A DNA stretch of 64,000 bases, from the NCBI GenBank assembly GCA_965369655.1, contig CBDUQR010000004.1, positions 7,951 through 71,950 on the forward strand. The letters are read 5' to 3'. The position numbers and the translations under genes are program-made. Within the stretch, counting starts at the first letter, position 1, and every line of letters begins with the position of its first letter. Of this stretch, positions 2,871 to 60,937 are shown in pieces. The notes under the pieces were generated by a model. That model did not search any database. It worked only from the letters and a program-made list of their open reading frames with translations, and had not been told where the DNA came from. This DNA comes from an uncultured bacterium. Lineage in GTDB: Bacteria; Zixibacteria; MSB-5A5; JAABVY01; JAHJOQ01.

Positions 2871-4157
2871 ATGATGAAAGCGTCACTATACACATTGGGT
2901 TGCAGGCTGAATCAGGCTGAGACCGGAATAATCGCCAAAACTCTAGTCGACGAGGGCTACGAGATCGTCGAGTGGGGTGAGCCTGTCGATCTCGCAGTAG
3001 TCAACACCTGCACCGTGACTGAGAAGGCCGACTCGAAATGCCGGAATGCGGTCAGGAAAGCGATTCGCACAAATCCTGACGCATTCGTAGCTGTCGTCGG
3101 ATGCTACTCACAGATGGCTGCGAAACTCATAAGTGAAATCGACGGCGTCGATCTCATTCTCGGCAACGCCGAGAAACTCAAGCTGGCCGACCATATCAAT
3201 GGCCTGCGGAAGATCGACACGCCAAAAATCATCTGCTCGCGTTTGGTCGCTCGCGACGATTTCACCATCGAGTCCGAGAGCACTCATGATAACCACACCC
3301 GCGCGAATCTCAAGATTCAGGATGGCTGTGATTTCGTCTGTTCATACTGTATCATACCGAGAGCGCGTGGACGATCGCGGAGCCGTCAGTTTTCCGACCT
3401 GATGCGTGAAGCACGGCAACTCGCCGACGATGGATTCAAAGAAATCGTACTGACCGGAGTCAACATCGGAACATATCAAAGCGACGGCTACAATTTCCTC
3501 GACATGGTCACGGAACTCGAAAAGCTCGATGGAATAGAACGAATTCGTATCAGTTCAATTGAACTGACGACCATCGAGCGAGAGCTTGTGCAGCACATGG
3601 CTGAATCCGTCAAGCTCTGCCGTCACCTGCACATTCCGCTACAGAGCGGAGACGACACGATCCTCGAAAACATGGCTCGTAAACACAAATCTCAGGAGTA
3701 TGCCGATTTCGTCGAGTACTGTGTCGAGACAGTGCCGGAGATCGGGATCGGAGCCGACATTCTGGTCGGATTCCCCGGCGAGAGTGACGAGCAGTTCAGA
3801 AACACAAAGAAATTCCTCGCCGATCTGCCAATCGAGTATTTCCATGTTTTCGCATATTCCGATCGCGAGAACACACCCTCCTCGCGCATGCCGGGCAAGA
3901 TCGACCCCGATACTAAAAAACTGCGCAGCCGAATAATGATAGAGATGGGCAAGCGTAAACGTTATGCATTCTGCGAGCGATATATCGGCAAGCCGGTCGA
4001 TGTGCTGTTCGAGTCGATCGAGGATGGTCTCTGGACCGGATTCACCGACAACTACATGCGAGTGCAGACACAGTGCGAAGAACATGTCAGAAATCAGATT
4101 CTGACTGTCGTGCCGGAGCGCATTGAGGGCAACACATTGATCGGGACGCTCACATGA
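2871..4157 (+). CDS. radical SAM methylthiotransferase, MiaB/RimO family (MiaB-like, probably MtaB-type) with C-terminal TRAM-like region
   Basis: N-terminal MTTase domain (LYTLGCRLNQAE, VVNTCTVT), radical SAM CxxxCxxC (CDFVCSYCIIP), 428 aa. Confidence 0.85.
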   Translation: MMKASLYTLGCRLNQAETGIIAKTLVDEGYEIVEWGEPVDLAVVNTCTVTEKADSKCRNAVRKAIRTNPDAFVAVVGCYSQMAAKLISEIDGVDLILGNAEKLKLADHINGLRKIDTPKIICSRLVARDDFTIESESTHDNHTRANLKIQDGCDFVCSYCIIPRARGRSRSRQFSDLMREARQLADDGFKEIVLTGVNIGTYQSDGYNFLDMVTELEKLDGIERIRISSIELTTIERELVQHMAESVKLCRHLHIPLQSGDDTILENMARKHKSQEYADFVEYCVETVPEIGIGADILVGFPGESDEQFRNTKKFLADLPIEYFHVFAYSDRENTPSSRMPGKIDPDTKKLRSRIMIEMGKRKRYAFCERYIGKPVDVLFESIEDGLWTGFTDNYMRVQTQCEEHVRNQILTVVPERIEGNTLIGTLT

Positions 4158-9734: not shown

Positions 9735-10027
9735 CGTTTACTCCCGGTTATTATGTTAAAAAATCCGATGTGCAAAAATAGAGTTGTTGATTCGTTTGTC
9801 AAGCAGCTTTGGACGGTATTTGGATCGGACTGTCGAAATGTTTGCCGACAGCGGATGTGCTCAGCAGATCCCTGATCGACAGATGTAGACGACATTTCCA
9901 TTTGAGGCGATTTGCCACGCAAGACTGTTTGAAATTCTGGATTTGCAACGTGCTGCACTACAATATGTTAAGGCTAATATCCTCAAATTAAGTTGCGTTC
10001 AGGGTTTGTGTCGCGTACTATTTCTTC

Positions 10028-10516
10028 ATGTCTAAGTCTGTATGGGCGCCATGGAGAGAAGAATATATCCTCGGTTTCTCCAAAAAGAAAGTGGAGAAGG
10101 GATGCCTTTTCTGCAAGGCGATAAAGCAGAATCGTGACAGGGCGAACCTGATCCTGTGTCGCAATGAAAGCACTTTCGTGATGATGAACCGCTACCCTTA
10201 CACCTCGGGGCATCTGATGATTGTGCCGTACAGGCATGTCGGGACGCTTGAGAGGCTGAGCGACGAGATCGCGTGTGAACTCATGATGGAGACACGCAGG
10301 GCGGTGAAAATCCTGAAACAGGCTTTCAAACCTGACGGTTTGAATGTCGGGATCAATCTTGGCCGACCGGCGGGCGCCGGCGTTCCGGGGCATTTGCACG
10401 TACACATTGTTCCTCGGTGGACCGGGGACAACAGCTTCATGCCCGTCATAGGAGAGACGAGAGTCATTTCGGTTTCTCTCGAAACGACATTTAGGATTCT
10501 CAGTAAGCTTTTCTAA
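10028..10516 (+). CDS. HIT-family hydrolase
   Basis: Histidine-triad motif GHLHVHIVPRW near the C-terminus; 162 aa. Confidence 0.85.
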   Translation: MSKSVWAPWREEYILGFSKKKVEKGCLFCKAIKQNRDRANLILCRNESTFVMMNRYPYTSGHLMIVPYRHVGTLERLSDEIACELMMETRRAVKILKQAFKPDGLNVGINLGRPAGAGVPGHLHVHIVPRWTGDNSFMPVIGETRVISVSLETTFRILSKLF

Positions 10517-10527
10517 AGGCTGCACCT

Positions 10528-12057
10528 ATGAAAATGCCGACAAAAGGTGAACTCCTCCGACTCCAGGAGATGTATCACACCGACAAGCGCGTTGCCGAAG
10601 CTCTTGGCGGCAATGTCACTGAGCATCTTGTGCAGTACTGGCGGCGGAAAAAAGGCATACCGCGCAGGAAATTCCCCAAGTACTCAGAAGCGCAGATAAA
10701 GGAACTGTGGGAGCGTTACGGCGATGATTTCAGGTGCGGACGAGAGCTTGAACTCTCAAAGGCGGGATTCTACAGTTGGAGACGTCGCTACAATATAATG
10801 GACAAGCCGCATGCGTTAAGACTTGAACAGCTCGAACTGCGTTTTGGTGCGGAACCCAAACTTGGACGCGACGGAGTCTATGTCGAGTACTACAGGACCG
10901 TCGCCGAGAAAATCATGGCGAACTGTTCCGACAGCGATATTGTCGAGCGCAAACAGACTGTCGAACTGACGCCCGATCTGATACTGCTGGACCGACTGAG
11001 CGGAGAGGACCGACGCAAGCTGCGCATATCGAAATCGGTGGCCAATAGAGTCTGGCTTGCGACCGTTGATCGGGGCATCCTGTCGAACAGTCAACTGGAT
11101 ACTGGCAGGGTGCTGAACAATGTCTTCTCGCTTCTTCACCGCGAGGCTCTCTCGCCAAACATGCTGGTCGTGCGCAACAGTTGTTCAAGCGCTGGGTACT
11201 CGGCTTTCTCGACGCTTTCGATCGAGTTGAGGCAGGATCAACTGAACAAACTTCTGAAACGTGGCAAGTTCGAGTACACAGTACCGCCCGTGCTCAGGAT
11301 TACTCTTCAGGGAAGGCTCCAGCGCGGGGTCACGGCGTTTGACGTCTTCTGCTACGCCATATCAAATGTCTCCCAAAATGTTTTCGATGGCAGGATTGTC
11401 GAGTACGCAGGGAACGTGACCGAGAAGCTGAATATGTTCGAACGTTTCTCGCTGTGCCATCTTACTCCGGCCTCAGGCGCTGCCTGCGGGTACACTCTGT
11501 TCGATGAAACTACAAGAAAATACCTCGCCAGACGAGGCAGGTCCGACCACAAAGCGCTTTTCTCTGACTCGAAAGCATTTTATGACCGCGACTATGTCCT
11601 GATGGTTTCAGGATTGGCCCCGCAGATCATGAAGTCGGATGAGTTGAGATCGGGACAGCTTGTCAAGGATGCTGAGAATATCGGAGCAATCGATACGGTG
11701 TTCGTCGGGGGCCCCTGCGGGGGAGGGATCGAAGCGATGAAACAACTCGCCGATCTGCTCAAAGAACGCAGAGTACATTCATCGGTACGGATGTACATCT
11801 CCCCGCTGACTCAGGAGATTTACATCGAGGCGATCAAGAAACGCTACCTCGCTCCGATAGCGGAGGCGGGAGCGACAATTCTCCCGCCGGCTTCATCGCT
11901 GGAGGATATTCCAGGGTACACTCCGGGATCCGGGGCAGGCGTTCTCGCAACACCTTATCGATACGATGACAGCCATTCGCAGGACTGCTGGTATGTGAGC
12001 CATTTCACGGCAGCCGAGAGTGCTGTACAAGGCAAACTAAGCTGCGTCGGACGCTGA
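10528..12057 (+). CDS. aconitase-family large-subunit (LeuC type-2)-like protein; catalytic and Fe-S ligand motifs appear to be lost; ~90-aa HTH-like N-terminal extension
   Basis: Immediately upstream of a canonical LeuD type-2 gene. Segments align to LeuC type 2 (VFVGGPCGGGIE vs VFIGSCTNGRLE; ILPPASSLEDIPG vs VTNPSCSACMGSL; VVRNSCSSAGYSAF vs VVGADSHTCTHGAF), but two of three Cys ligands and the DSHT motif are substituted. Alignment is by eye and from memory. Confidence 0.55.
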   Translation: MKMPTKGELLRLQEMYHTDKRVAEALGGNVTEHLVQYWRRKKGIPRRKFPKYSEAQIKELWERYGDDFRCGRELELSKAGFYSWRRRYNIMDKPHALRLEQLELRFGAEPKLGRDGVYVEYYRTVAEKIMANCSDSDIVERKQTVELTPDLILLDRLSGEDRRKLRISKSVANRVWLATVDRGILSNSQLDTGRVLNNVFSLLHREALSPNMLVVRNSCSSAGYSAFSTLSIELRQDQLNKLLKRGKFEYTVPPVLRITLQGRLQRGVTAFDVFCYAISNVSQNVFDGRIVEYAGNVTEKLNMFERFSLCHLTPASGAACGYTLFDETTRKYLARRGRSDHKALFSDSKAFYDRDYVLMVSGLAPQIMKSDELRSGQLVKDAENIGAIDTVFVGGPCGGGIEAMKQLADLLKERRVHSSVRMYISPLTQEIYIEAIKKRYLAPIAEAGATILPPASSLEDIPGYTPGSGAGVLATPYRYDDSHSQDCWYVSHFTAAESAVQGKLSCVGR

Positions 12058-13174: not shown

Positions 13175-13298
13175 TATTGTGTGTATCCGGTAGATGTCCA
13201 GAGGTTGTCCCAAAAGGTCGTTTCGACAGGTCTTGGCGGCGACGGAGTCGTCGGTGTGACCTGTCGATTTTTTGCAAGCTATTGTCTGACATTGTTTC

Positions 13299-22875: not shown

Positions 22876-23105
22876 AGATGGTTCCCGGCTTTCGGGCATG
22901 TTGAAAAAGTCCTTTAGATCAGCGTTGAATAGTGTTGATTGTGGTTATACAAACAAAACGAGAGCAATATCAACAGTCGAGGTCGAAACCCTTACCTGTC
23001 CTGAGCCTGCGAAGGGCGGTTTCGACAATTCGCGCAAAACGCGAAAAGGAAAGAGTTGTCAAGTCTCTCCGTTCGCTTCGCGAACTCCGAGATTTGACCT
23101 ACTCA

Positions 23106-36212: not shown

Positions 36213-36292
36213 GCAGTTCACACGCCCGCCTCCGGCGAACGCAAGAACTGCCGGAACGGATACACCCGCCGTTGCACTCTGGGTGGGCTACG
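36213..36292. repeat. REP-like modules (cagttcacacgcccgcc hairpin and cactctgggtgggctacggaat)
   Basis: Copies at 13299-13346 and 35226-35262. Confidence 0.5.
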
Positions 36293-36345
36293 GAATATGA
36301 AGATGGGGCAAACGAGAAGAGGTTGTCTTATAAGTCCTGGTCTTC

Positions 36346-36459
36346 AGTAGGTCGGCGTTCCGCAGCAGGCGAAGCCTGCAAGAAACCCGACTCTCGGATA
36401 ACAAGATAGAAGTGTCGCGTTTCTCACCCCGCACCGCGGGGTTCGGAACACGACCTACT
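36346..36459. repeat. 114-nt element bounded by 16-bp terminal inverted repeats (agtaggtcggcgttcc / ggaacacgacctact), with two internal hairpins; copy A. Possible structured RNA or MITE/REP module
   Basis: ~90% identical to 60726-60839. All differences that fall in stems are compensatory (gcagg/cctgc vs gcaag/cttgc; cccgc-acc-gcggg vs ctgat-tac-atcag). Confidence 0.8.
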
Positions 36460-36499
36460 TCTGAGATGGCCTCAGGACGTCTGTCGCCCACAAAAAGAA

Positions 36500-37390
36500 T
36501 CATGGATGCGTTCGTTTCAAACGCAGTTTGTTCGAGGGCAACGCCGAGACTATCATCGCGATCACGATCAGCGAGCCGCCAAGAATGTGGGCTGCGGCGA
36601 CTTGTTCACCGCCGACAGTCCATGCGAACAGCGCCGCAAAGACAGGTTCCAGCGCGAATATCAGCGAGACGCGTACCGCCGCTACGATACGCTGCGCCGT
36701 CATCTGGATCACGAATGCTGAGAGTGTCGGAAATATCGCGAGGAACAGAACAGCGCCGACTGTCTCAGTTGTGCCGACATTGAACGACAAACCGAATGTC
36801 ACCCCGCAGATCAAACTCGCTACCCCCACGAAAAGAAATTGCTGGAATGCTAACACATACGGATTGATACCGCGCTTTGCATACCTGTCGACCAGCAATA
36901 TGTGAATGGCGTATGTCATCGCGGTGATCAATGTCAGGAGATCGCCACGGTTGGCATGGACGAGTCCTCCTGTCAGGAACCACAACCCGGCCAGCGAGAA
37001 TAGCACCGCACCGCTGTCTTTGAGCGATGGTTTCCTTCTGAACAGGAGCAATGAGAATACCGGCACGAATGCGACGAACAGCCCTGTGATGAATGCCGAG
37101 TTGGATGCGGTCGTGAACTTGAGTCCGATCGTCTGAGGAACATAAAGAAGCCATAGAAAAAATCCGAGCAGGAAACCTGTTCCGAGATTGGGGAAAAGAG
37201 GTATCCGTTTCGCTTTCAGAAACGCAGCGAGGACGATCGCAGCGAATGTGAACCTGTATCCGACAAGGATGACTGGGTCTATGTGGTCAAGGCTCGCCTT
37301 GACGATGACGAATGTCGATCCCCAGATCGCCGCGGCATATACTAGGCCGACATGCGACAGGACATTCGATGCTTTGCGCTCTCCAACCAT
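36500..37390 (-). CDS. EamA/DMT-superfamily transporter
   Basis: Ten predicted TM helices with two EamA-like halves (AIWGSTFVIVK...; GLWFLTGG...). Confidence 0.8.
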   Translation of the reverse strand: MVGERKASNVLSHVGLVYAAAIWGSTFVIVKASLDHIDPVILVGYRFTFAAIVLAAFLKAKRIPLFPNLGTGFLLGFFLWLLYVPQTIGLKFTTASNSAFITGLFVAFVPVFSLLLFRRKPSLKDSGAVLFSLAGLWFLTGGLVHANRGDLLTLITAMTYAIHILLVDRYAKRGINPYVLAFQQFLFVGVASLICGVTFGLSFNVGTTETVGAVLFLAIFPTLSAFVIQMTAQRIVAAVRVSLIFALEPVFAALFAWTVGGEQVAAAHILGGSLIVIAMIVSALPSNKLRLKRTHP

Positions 37391-47287: not shown

Positions 47288-47885
47288 GCAAAGCCTTTAC
47301 GTGCGCGGCAGATGTGGACATTTGCCGCGCACGGACACTCAGAACTGGCAAGTGAGCGTGACCTACAGCCTGGGACTCGCCGTGAGGTCTGCCGCCCACG
47401 CCAGATTTCATGACTGACAACTCAGCTTGGGTGAGTCGCCTGACAGATCGAAATATGCATCGGAACTCGTGTCCACGTTTGCTGAAATCCTACTTCTGGA
47501 CGGCAAGTTTAGTATTGACCGGAACCAATATTTTAGTATATTACAGTTGTTCGTTTCGGATGGGAAAAAAGAATATACTCTCTATCACACAGGCGGCGTC
47601 TGCATGTGTTTCGCATCGCCTGAAAGCACAAAAAAGTTGAGCCGTTTTGTTTCACTGGAACGGCAGTGTGACCCGCGAATTTGTCGCAGGCGGTACTGTC
47701 TCGCTGCTGCCAGCGTGCGTCCTTTCGCAGTATCCCTGATGCAACGATATCTTATCAACAAGGATGTCGTCGCCCAGCAAGACATACAGGTGACATTTTT
47801 TGTTCGAGCCTGAGCAACCCTTGATAAACGTATTGTGTGAGAACAAGAATGAAGATATAATTTCCTGAGTGAATATGCATCTGAT

Positions 47886-60630: not shown

Positions 60631-60725
60631 CATATTCGCACCGAAACGAAGATACCGCAGGTTTGAATGCAAACTGTACTGTGGGCGGCAGACGTCCTGA
60701 GGCTGACTCAAAAGCCCTATTCTCC

Positions 60726-60839
60726 AGTAGGTCGGCGTTCCTCAGCAAGCGAAGCTTGCCAGAAACCCGACTCCCGCGCAACAAGATGGAAGTGTCGCGT
60801 TTCTCACCTGATTACATCAGGTTCGGAACACGACCTACT
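60726..60839. repeat. 114-nt TIR-bounded structured element, copy B (see 36346-36459); flanking 20- and 27-nt modules are the inverted and swapped versions of those around copy A
   Basis: Left flank gggcggcagacgtcctgagg is the reverse complement of copy A's right flank cctcaggacgtctgtcgccc; right flank gacaacctctcctcgtctgccccatct matches the reverse complement of copy A's left flank. Confidence 0.8.
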
Positions 60840-60937
60840 TATGGGACAACCTCTCCTCGTCTGCCCCATCTGATGCTGAAATCGGCAAGTTTTAATAAGC
60901 CCCAATATTTAAGTACCACTCACCCGGACCTGAACAA

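Follow-up and report, generated by a model that had tools for sequence, protein, structure and literature searches.

What is a 114-nt element that carries no gene, is bounded by inverted repeats and occurs twice in a 64,000-nt stretch of DNA from an uncultured bacterium of the Zixibacteria (contig CBDUQR010000004.1 of assembly GCA_965369655.1; this whole stretch is referred to as the window)? The original prediction, made from the letters of the window, had offered a structured small RNA, an invertible segment or a protein-recognised DNA palindrome of the repetitive extragenic palindrome (REP) or bacterial interspersed mosaic element (BIME) type, and it is the last of these that is supported, by units of the element flanking genes for REP-associated tyrosine transposases (RAYTs). 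The element is very probably a REPIN (REP doublet forming hairpin), that is, a gene-less, non-autonomous, head-to-head pair of GTAG REP units, with a RAYT in Zixibacteria and their relatives. REPINs, or head-to-head GTAG REP dimers, are defined in PMC3733652 and PMC3337134, and the core of the element fits the published definition because it is a gene-less pair with a short spacer at the place where, in four related loci, the RAYT gene lies. This family of GTAG REP pairs is new, and the kind of element to which it belongs is already known.

The element and its relatives

Both copies (A at 36346-36459 and B at 60726-60839) are intergenic, and sequence and block matches place them, with their terminal inverted repeats (TIRs), where they had been predicted. 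Conserved 17-20-nt blocks of the core occur exactly twice in the window, against roughly 0 to 0.2 times in shuffled sequence, and the core is bounded by inverted repeats, AGTAGGTCGGCGTTCC ... GGAACACGACCTACT, whose lengths (16 and 15 nt) differ by a single additional base. The copies share their ends and hairpins as predicted, but their identity is 83.3% over 114 nt (19 differences) and not about 90%. A four-way structure is the predicted fold common to both (z about -6.4 on either strand), with a closing stem of 9+5 bp and three hairpins in each copy. The first hairpin holds two of the 19 differences, which make one compensated pair (G-C to A-T), and the last holds ten, with four pairs and most of the loop swapped (CCCGC/GCGGG vs CTGAT/ATCAG); five more fall in the central loop and two in the junction. 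The claim that all stem substitutions are compensatory thus stands for the first and last hairpins but fails at core position 17 (G in A, T in B), where the change is uncompensated and breaks a pair predicted in A, the partner being the unchanged C of TCGGAAC.

Further copies were sought in related metagenome-assembled genomes (MAGs), as had been proposed with the original prediction. When one genome per species was scanned with a pattern that fixed only the closing stem, 23 loci were returned, all from uncultured MAGs with the label Zixibacteria, FCB group, ‘Ignavibacteria’ or just ‘bacterium’ (6 exact pattern matches in CSMAG_1428 and 4 each in two other MAGs), and a metagenome scan anchored on the inner stem only gave at least 120. 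Together the scans yielded 64 distinct full cores from Zixibacteria and related MAGs and metagenomes. The element is multi-copy and extragenic, all copies lying between crude open reading frame (ORF) calls (2 in the window, up to 6 matches per MAG). Among 108 ORFs within 3.5 kb of the 23 cores, which matched 158 Pfam families, no gene family but TPR repeats recurred.

The family has a palindromic skeleton (GTAGGTCGGGTTCCGA-hairpin-GAGAAACCCGACA-spacer-TGTCGGGTTTCTC-hairpin-TCGGAACCCGACCTAC) that 62 of the 64 cores match on both strands; many lack the extra base of the 5' arm, which makes their skeleton perfectly palindromic. The inverted two-unit layout is present in 64/64 cores, with spacers of about 17-40 nt. 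The central loop and both side hairpins vary freely across relatives, whereas the inner stem GAAACCCGAC/GTCGGGTTTC is almost invariant though absent from the genome search pattern. The G before TAGG, also unfixed by that pattern, is present in 24 of 25 aligned sequences, and conservation ends just outside it; most arms in the set anchored on the inner stem alone begin GTAG, and the window units start GTAGGTCGG on their own strands. In the alignment of relatives, family conservation is therefore bounded by GTAG and CTAC (36347-36458 in A, 60727-60838 in B), and the bases beside them are not direct repeats (...cttca-core-ttctg in A, ...ctcca-core-ttatg in B). As the skeleton is palindromic and conservation is bounded by GTAG and CTAC, the element consists of two inverted copies of one unit.

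Each unit is about 45 nt long, can fold as an imperfect palindrome hairpin and reads, on its own strand, GTAG, lower stem, tandem G.A/A.G junction and variable upper hairpin. The lower stem GTCGG(N)GTTCC pairs with GAAACCCGAC, has one constant C.A mismatch and is conserved in all genomes sampled. The two units are complementary to one another, and a single strand can also form the four-way junction. A search with a REP-unit profile found no further units in the window beyond the four known.

Among the relatives, stem co-changes that look lineage-specific were seen (GCAACCCGAC/GTCGGGTTGC in L152 at 9943-9992 and 10486-10536 and in L155 at 2940-2989 and 3484-3613), and L064 has a paired outer-stem variant, GCGTTTC/GAAACGC, at 284-397.

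Units of the element flank RAYT genes in related genomes

All ORFs in about 1 Mb of fetched loci were searched with phmmer, the query being RayT of E. coli as annotated in the K-12 record. The best match (E = 7e-21) was a 159-aa gene with the Pfam domain Y1_Tnp at locus L074, with a full core on one side of it and a single unit on the other. Homologues of its product number more than 1,500 at E <= 1e-10 and are mostly 159 aa long; several of the source-named ones come from Zixibacteria MAGs, and most of the listed clusters have one contig each. Five RAYT homologues scored 106-121 bits against the NCBIfam model NF047646, ‘REP-associated tyrosine transposase’ (cutoff 80), and about 20 bits against an IS200 transposase model (cutoff 55). 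The only Protein Data Bank match for protein P0039 was E. coli TnpA-REP (4ER8), to which it aligns at the HuH motif and around the catalytic Tyr.

Units stand on both sides of the RAYT gene in 8/8 related loci (L074 and L150-L156). Four of these loci (L150, from a 3.83-Mb Zixibacteria genome; L151, 3.5 Mb; L152; and L156) have a left half (GTAG ... GAAACCCGAC) on one side of the gene and a right half (GTCGGGTTTC ... CTAC) on the other, and the short spacer of a gene-less core (21 nt in both window copies) occupies the position that the gene has in them. The gene in L153 lies between two enlarged whole cores, and those in L154 and L155 between a left unit and a whole core. The original prediction had named the end of a known insertion sequence (IS) as an identity that would count against it, and this is nearly what was found, the halves of the element matching the two sequences on either side of RAYT genes in its relatives. 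Five RAYTs from different genomes share only 53-61% identity with the query RAYT, yet the lower stem GTCGGGTTyC/GrAACCCGAC is nearly invariant. No RAYT was found in the window itself or in L024/L026.

The enlarged pairs of L153 (9735-9973 and 10485-10723) are near-identical, about 240 nt long and have upper hairpins of about 85 nt, so the variable tier can expand greatly. Many RAYT-bearing contigs measure only 0.6-2 kb, as though metagenome assembly stopped at the repeats on either side of the gene.

Selection on structure and strand bias of the upper hairpins

RNAalifold recovered only the conserved stems from a MAFFT alignment, in which the variable hairpins were misaligned, and so upper hairpins were aligned from their bases and pairs counted from there. 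Positions 1-2 are a conserved G.A/A.G. Positions 3-8 have 66% canonical pairs, compared to 41% with permuted partners (maximum 46% in 500 permutations), and 4-6 pair types occur at each of these positions; the mean minimum free energy of the upper hairpins is -8.6 kcal/mol compared to -4.0 in shuffles. The variable hairpins are selected for structure across the family, and the selection on secondary structure originally predicted from two copies is thus upheld by the pairing counts. The recurrent paired variant GTCGTGTTCC/GAAACGCGAC, found in the window's subfamily, has a T.G pair only in the single-unit hairpin.

The strand carrying a unit's own GTAG gave the better upper-hairpin fold in 29-39 and the worse in 7-10 of 50 clusters (mutual similarity below 75%; RNA or DNA parameters, with the conserved GA ends kept or trimmed). 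Sign tests gave p from 5e-6 (untrimmed) to 3e-3 (ends trimmed), values that are not fully independent, as the sequences are related to one another, and this tells to some extent against our interpretation. Mismatches on the own-GTAG strand are G.T rather than A.C (60 vs 34) and G.A rather than T.C (120 vs 17). The favoured strand is the forward one for the left unit and the reverse one for the right, so that one transcript cannot explain the pattern. By analogy with known enzymes, this bias fits recognition of single-stranded DNA by a RAYT and not a single RNA; TnpA-REP is active on a single-stranded REP but not on its complement, and requires GTAG (PMC8266576).

These data bear on the suggestion that the element is a structured small or cis-regulatory RNA, a four-way-junction RNA made from one strand whose hairpins are kept by compensatory change. 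The strong fold, the covariation of the variable hairpins and the GNRA-like loops (GTAA, GCAA, GAAA) that end many first hairpins would all suit such an RNA, as would the position of copy B between two same-strand genes, and REPs are often transcribed in mRNAs and can act as RNA elements (PMC3733652). We nonetheless regard it as very unlikely. The Rfam search that had been proposed returned nothing at the gathering threshold in the window, nothing with E up to 10 in 36250-36550 and only tRNAs in 17 related loci. Both strands fold equally well and the skeleton is a perfect DNA palindrome; the copies are randomly oriented with respect to neighbouring genes and no gene family recurs nearby; and the two halves have their strand bias on opposite strands and, in relatives, flank a transposase gene. 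A gene-linked RNA or cis-regulatory element was rejected separately for want of a recurrent neighbouring gene family.

Nested palindromic layers around the element

The flank modules are swapped and inverted between the two loci, as was originally noted, with matching segments in reverse orientation (36469-36492 on the forward strand with 60680-60703 on the reverse, and 36302-36327 on the forward with 60845-60870 on the reverse). Each module, called X and Y in the original prediction, is made up of one arm of a repeat that we call H, 4 nt and one end of a second, M. H is a short hairpin repeat (GTGGGC-GGCAGAYG-TCCR-CRTCTGCC-CC) that is commonly empty in these genomes, and M is a TIR element with ends GAGGCTGTCnnnAAAAG ... 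CTTATnnnGACAACCTC, located in the H loop. The modular assembly of the flanks that had been predicted is borne out.

Four H-loop bases stand on both sides of M, on the same strand (TCCT/TCCT around copy B and in L016, CGGA/CGGA in L022 and AGAA/AGGA around copy A). Pairs of M ends with other cargo have AAGA/AAGA (L140) and TCCT/TCCT (L091), and 4-nt direct repeats are present in 6/7 complete M pairs. We infer from this the order of the nested insertions and that the 4-nt repeats may be true target duplications. The AAAAG type of M end lies beside the H 5' arm and the ATAAG type beside the H 3' arm, and within these flanks the core is in forward orientation in copy B and L016 and in reverse orientation in copy A and L022. 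In copies nested in M the long-spacer side of the REPIN always follows A[A/T]AAG and the other end abuts CTT, and the spacing is asymmetric, with 12-19 nt on one side of the core and 0-9 nt on the other. An M-like end lies within 60 nt of the core in 15 of 64 cases and is lacking in the other 49, and the units flanking RAYT genes are without M, which argues that M is a host site and not a part of the REPIN.

It is very improbable that the element is a miniature inverted-repeat transposable element (MITE) of the DDE type, in which the whole of M-core-M was moved by an IS transposase with the REP pair as cargo. The inverted M ends, their 4-nt direct repeats in most pairs, the possibility of other cargo and the 15 cores with an M-like end nearby do speak for it, and the outer M layer has the TIRs, 4-nt direct repeats and variable cargo expected of such an element. 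The core itself has no flanking duplication, direct repeats being absent beside GTAG or CTAC; the 49 cores and the RAYT-flanking units without M stand against it; and in the four readable pairs the M end types are linked to the H arms and not to the sides of the core, which is reversed in two of the four, so that M-core-M did not move as a fixed unit.

The least probable of the alternatives, to the point of being highly improbable, is an inverton, in which the X'-core-Y and Y'-core-X arrangements are two states of one switch, the core being turned over between its inverted repeats by a site-specific recombinase: inverted repeats are present at the element ends, the core takes opposite orientations relative to the conserved flank modules and both arrangements recur in another genome (L016, L022), but they do so at different loci and not at one, the cores differ at 19 positions (17% diverged) so that neither is a flipped copy of the other, the neighbours (EamA, a hypothetical protein, an S4-domain protein and HflX) include no recombinase gene beside either copy, independent assemblies from another sample (two per locus) are 100% identical with the same orientation at both loci, with no orientation polymorphism seen between assemblies at either, and the same arrangements would result if the core had entered one or other strand of a palindromic target. 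On reading the sequences, a retron non-coding RNA (no reverse transcriptase nearby), a CRISPR remnant (no cas gene nearby, no repeat array), an integron attC site and a bidirectional terminator (no U-run directly after the closing stem) were also dropped.

Positions of features and other repeats

Copy A is flanked by a 219-aa hypothetical gene and an EamA gene, both with their 3' ends towards it, and copy B by an S4-domain gene and hflX, which are on the same strand. Features of the two copies and their flanks are collected in Table 1.

Table 1. Coordinates of the REPIN copies, their flanking layers and related sites in the window
Feature	Positions	Strand	Remarks
REPIN copy A (GTAG ... CTAC), head-to-head pair of GTAG REP units	36347-36458	.	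fits family skeleton on both strands
A left REP unit: GTAG, GTCGGCGTTCC, upper hairpin GCAGGC-GAA-GCCTGC, GAAACCCGAC	36347-36391	+	nhmmer REP-unit profile E = 7.5e-9
A spacer between units	36392-36412	.	site of RAYT gene in L150-L152 and L156 (4/8 RAYT loci)
A right REP unit: GTAG, GTCGTGTTCC, hairpin CCCCGC-GGT-GCGGGG, GAAACGCGAC	36413-36458	-	nhmmer E = 6.3e-10
A left spacer tcctggtcttca	36335-36346	+	similar spacers tccctattactg, tcccggtaagac 5' of cores in other genomes
A M TIR, ATAAG type: GAGGTTGTCTTATAAG	36319-36334	+	
A M TIR, AAAAG type: GAGGCCATCTCAGAAG	36458-36473	-	degenerate
A 4-nt direct repeat AGAA	36315-36318	+	partner AGGA 36474-36477
A 4-nt direct repeat AGGA	36474-36477	+	
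A outer H arm GATGGGGCAAACG	36302-36314	+	
A outer H arm CGTCTGTCGCCCACA	36478-36492	+	
REPIN copy B (GTAG ... CTAC)	60727-60838	.	
B left REP unit, upper hairpin GCAAGC-GAA-GCTTGC	60727-60771	+	nhmmer E = 1.1e-6
B spacer between units	60772-60792		
B right REP unit, upper hairpin CCTGAT-GTA-ATCAGG on - strand	60793-60838	-	nhmmer E = 5.6e-9
B left spacer ccctattctcca	60715-60726	+	
B M TIR, AAAAG type: GAGGCTGACTCAAAAG	60699-60714	+	
B M TIR, ATAAG type: GAGGTTGTCCCATAAG	60838-60853	-	
B 4-nt direct repeat TCCT	60695-60698	+	partner 60854-60857
B 4-nt direct repeat TCCT	60854-60857	+	
B outer H 5' arm TGTGGGCGGCAGACG	60680-60694	+	
B outer H 3' arm CGTCTGCCCCATC	60858-60870	+	
Empty H hairpin GGCAGATG-TGGA-CATTTGCC	47307-47326	+	no insert
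Solo M end ccggtagatg-TCCA-GAGGTTGTCCCAAAAG with H-like arm	13187-13216	+	no REPIN, no partner M end

The H repeat also occurs elsewhere, at 963-982 of the window and in relatives (L013 6797-6816, L022 4839-4858, L036 12701-12720, L043 7181-7200, L044 643-662 and L061 468-487). M elements (GAGGYTGTCnnnAAAAG / CTTATnnnGACAACCTC) with non-REP cargo of 130-490 nt are present in L140 (2345-2526), L091 (1843-2014) and L067 (1356-1889). No transposase partner was found for the M elements, whose ends may resemble those of the IS5/IS903 type.

Several hairpin repeats of other kinds were seen in the related loci. A near-perfect one of about 60-65 nt, GCAGAAACCCGACCGTSAGGGAGGGTGC ... GCACCCTCCCTSACGGTCGGGTTTCYGC, is without GTAG arms and has the stem base GAAACCCGAC/GTCGGGTTTC in common with the family (metagenome contigs L031 9819 and 10845, L038 4561, L046 10344, L047 1218, L053 73, L104 338, L108 4664, L118, L121, L122, L125, L126, L128 and L144). 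A third conserved context of this hairpin, agtgaGAAACCCGACAT ... ATGTCGGGTTTCtcgtcccgt, with small flanking hairpins, has neither GTAGGTCGG arms nor an Rfam match (L039 903, L056 7007, L105 146, L106 7108, L113 2947, L120 213 and L123 6604); in L106 a Y1_Tnp gene lies about 1.5 kb away. Tail-to-tail motifs GAAACCCGACCTAC ... GTAGGTCGGGTTTC are found inside ttgtcgggtaa ... ttacccgacaa in L117 (4928-4973), which also has a Y1_Tnp gene (1628-2245), and in L139 (about 371-420). Other intergenic GTAG-headed sequences in the window, at about 23058-23102 (-), 22719 and 47366 (-), include GTAGGTCAAATCTCGGAGTTCGCGAAGCGAACGGAGAGACTTGAC, which resembles a singleton REP but has another stem and is unmatched by the REP-unit profile.

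Comparison with known systems

With IS200/IS605 elements (IS608, ISDra2) the RAYT loci have in common a Y1 HuH transposase gene between two imperfect palindromes and, by analogy, probably also strand-specific recognition of single-stranded DNA. IS608 is cleaved about 19 nt 5' of its left hairpin and about 10 nt 3' of its right hairpin, distances that the asymmetric spacing around the family's cores (12-19 and 0-9 nt) recalls. The proteins, however, score as RAYTs and not as IS200 transposases, and, unlike in a multi-copy IS, most of the listed RAYT clusters here are on a single contig and it is the gene-less pairs that are the multi-copy form. ERIC, Correia/NEMIS, RUP and BOX are also intergenic repeats of 100-150 bp with inverted ends and a strong predicted fold, found in either orientation, and they are thought to be moved by DDE transposases with target duplications. 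The core, in contrast, is without a flanking duplication and matches the ends that flank a Y1 transposase gene.

GTAG REPs form head-to-head heterodimers with complex self-complementary loops and G.T pairs, flank RAYTs and occur as dimers in palindromes (PMC3733652). The element agrees with REPINs that have a RAYT in Pseudomonas, Enterobacteria, Stenotrophomonas and eight phyla (PMC3116915, PMC3733652, PMC8266576 and PMC3337134) in its 5' GTAG and imperfect palindrome, in having inverted units with the GTAG tags outside and a short spacer, in the differing upper hairpins of its units (a heterodimer), with G.T pairs and alternative complementary stem residues, and in being intergenic, multi-copy and embedded as a dimer in palindromes, with a RAYT gene flanked by units. 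It differs from them in its host, the Zixibacteria and relatives, in its long (about 45 nt), two-tiered unit with a conserved lower stem and variable upper hairpin about a tandem G.A junction, in the near-invariance of the lower stem despite the divergence of the RAYTs, and in a copy number that looks low (2 in 64 kb, 6 pattern matches in one MAG).

PMC3733652 describes REP dimers inside palindromes from three further phyla. These dimers (A. variabilis GTAG-15, T. roseum GTAG-23 and H. neapolitanus CGTC-1) and E. coli BIMEs share with the window copies a mosaic of REP units and short motifs, with the dimer at the centre of a palindrome, and empty target hairpins are abundant in T. roseum, as here. 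The present family differs in having three nested layers (H, M with its 4-nt repeats, and the REPIN) and in that the same flanks enclose the REPIN in either orientation.

Proposed mechanism and implications

By analogy with E. coli and other RAYTs, the RAYT would recognise the unit as folded single-stranded DNA, binding GTAG and the lower stem, and would then cut nearby and paste the pair elsewhere. The upper hairpin would need only to stay a hairpin, so that its sequence could drift by paired changes. On the simplest reading the REPIN would have entered the centre of a palindromic H and M target on one or other strand; M being palindromic, both strands offer the same target and the REPIN can lie in either orientation within it. 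It is possible, although we consider it rather doubtful, that the nested copies keep an insertion footprint of RAYT-mediated REPIN transposition, in which a REPIN carrying its left spacer of 12-19 nt would always be inserted 3' of A[A/T]AAG, at a palindrome's apex and on either strand, and this would account for the two orientations seen within identical flanks.

Besides the relatedness of the sequences already mentioned, several points weigh against a RAYT-mobilised REPIN, or against parts of that interpretation. We know of no direct demonstration of RAYT-driven REPIN transposition in any organism. The window has only two copies, and no RAYT was found in it or in the approximately 8 kb to its right (about 72 kb of scaffold), and so we infer the cognate enzyme of this genome from its relatives. 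Variation in the skeleton and arms is too small to choose between a two-hairpin and a four-way fold. As to the nested insertions, L067 has AGGA on one side of M and TCCT on the other, no empty M palindrome was found, and a search for M ends 0.7-2.5 kb apart found no autonomous M-type IS (the pairs are 164-526 nt apart).

The Zixibacteria carry a GTAG REP/RAYT system, with a recognition stem that is nearly invariant across the sampled genomes; in the literature searched, nothing linking Zixibacteria with REPs was found. In annotation, labels such as riboswitch, inverton or small RNA gene should not be given to these elements. The strand bias and two-tier hairpin of the units and the consistent junctions in palindromic targets provide substrates and predictions for how RAYTs disseminate REPs. 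If the nested copies do keep an insertion footprint, they would, together with the nearly invariant lower stem, offer a defined target, junctions and a two-orientation control for the movement of REPINs by RAYTs, and long-lived, vertically inherited REPIN-RAYT pairs would be extended beyond the Proteobacteria.

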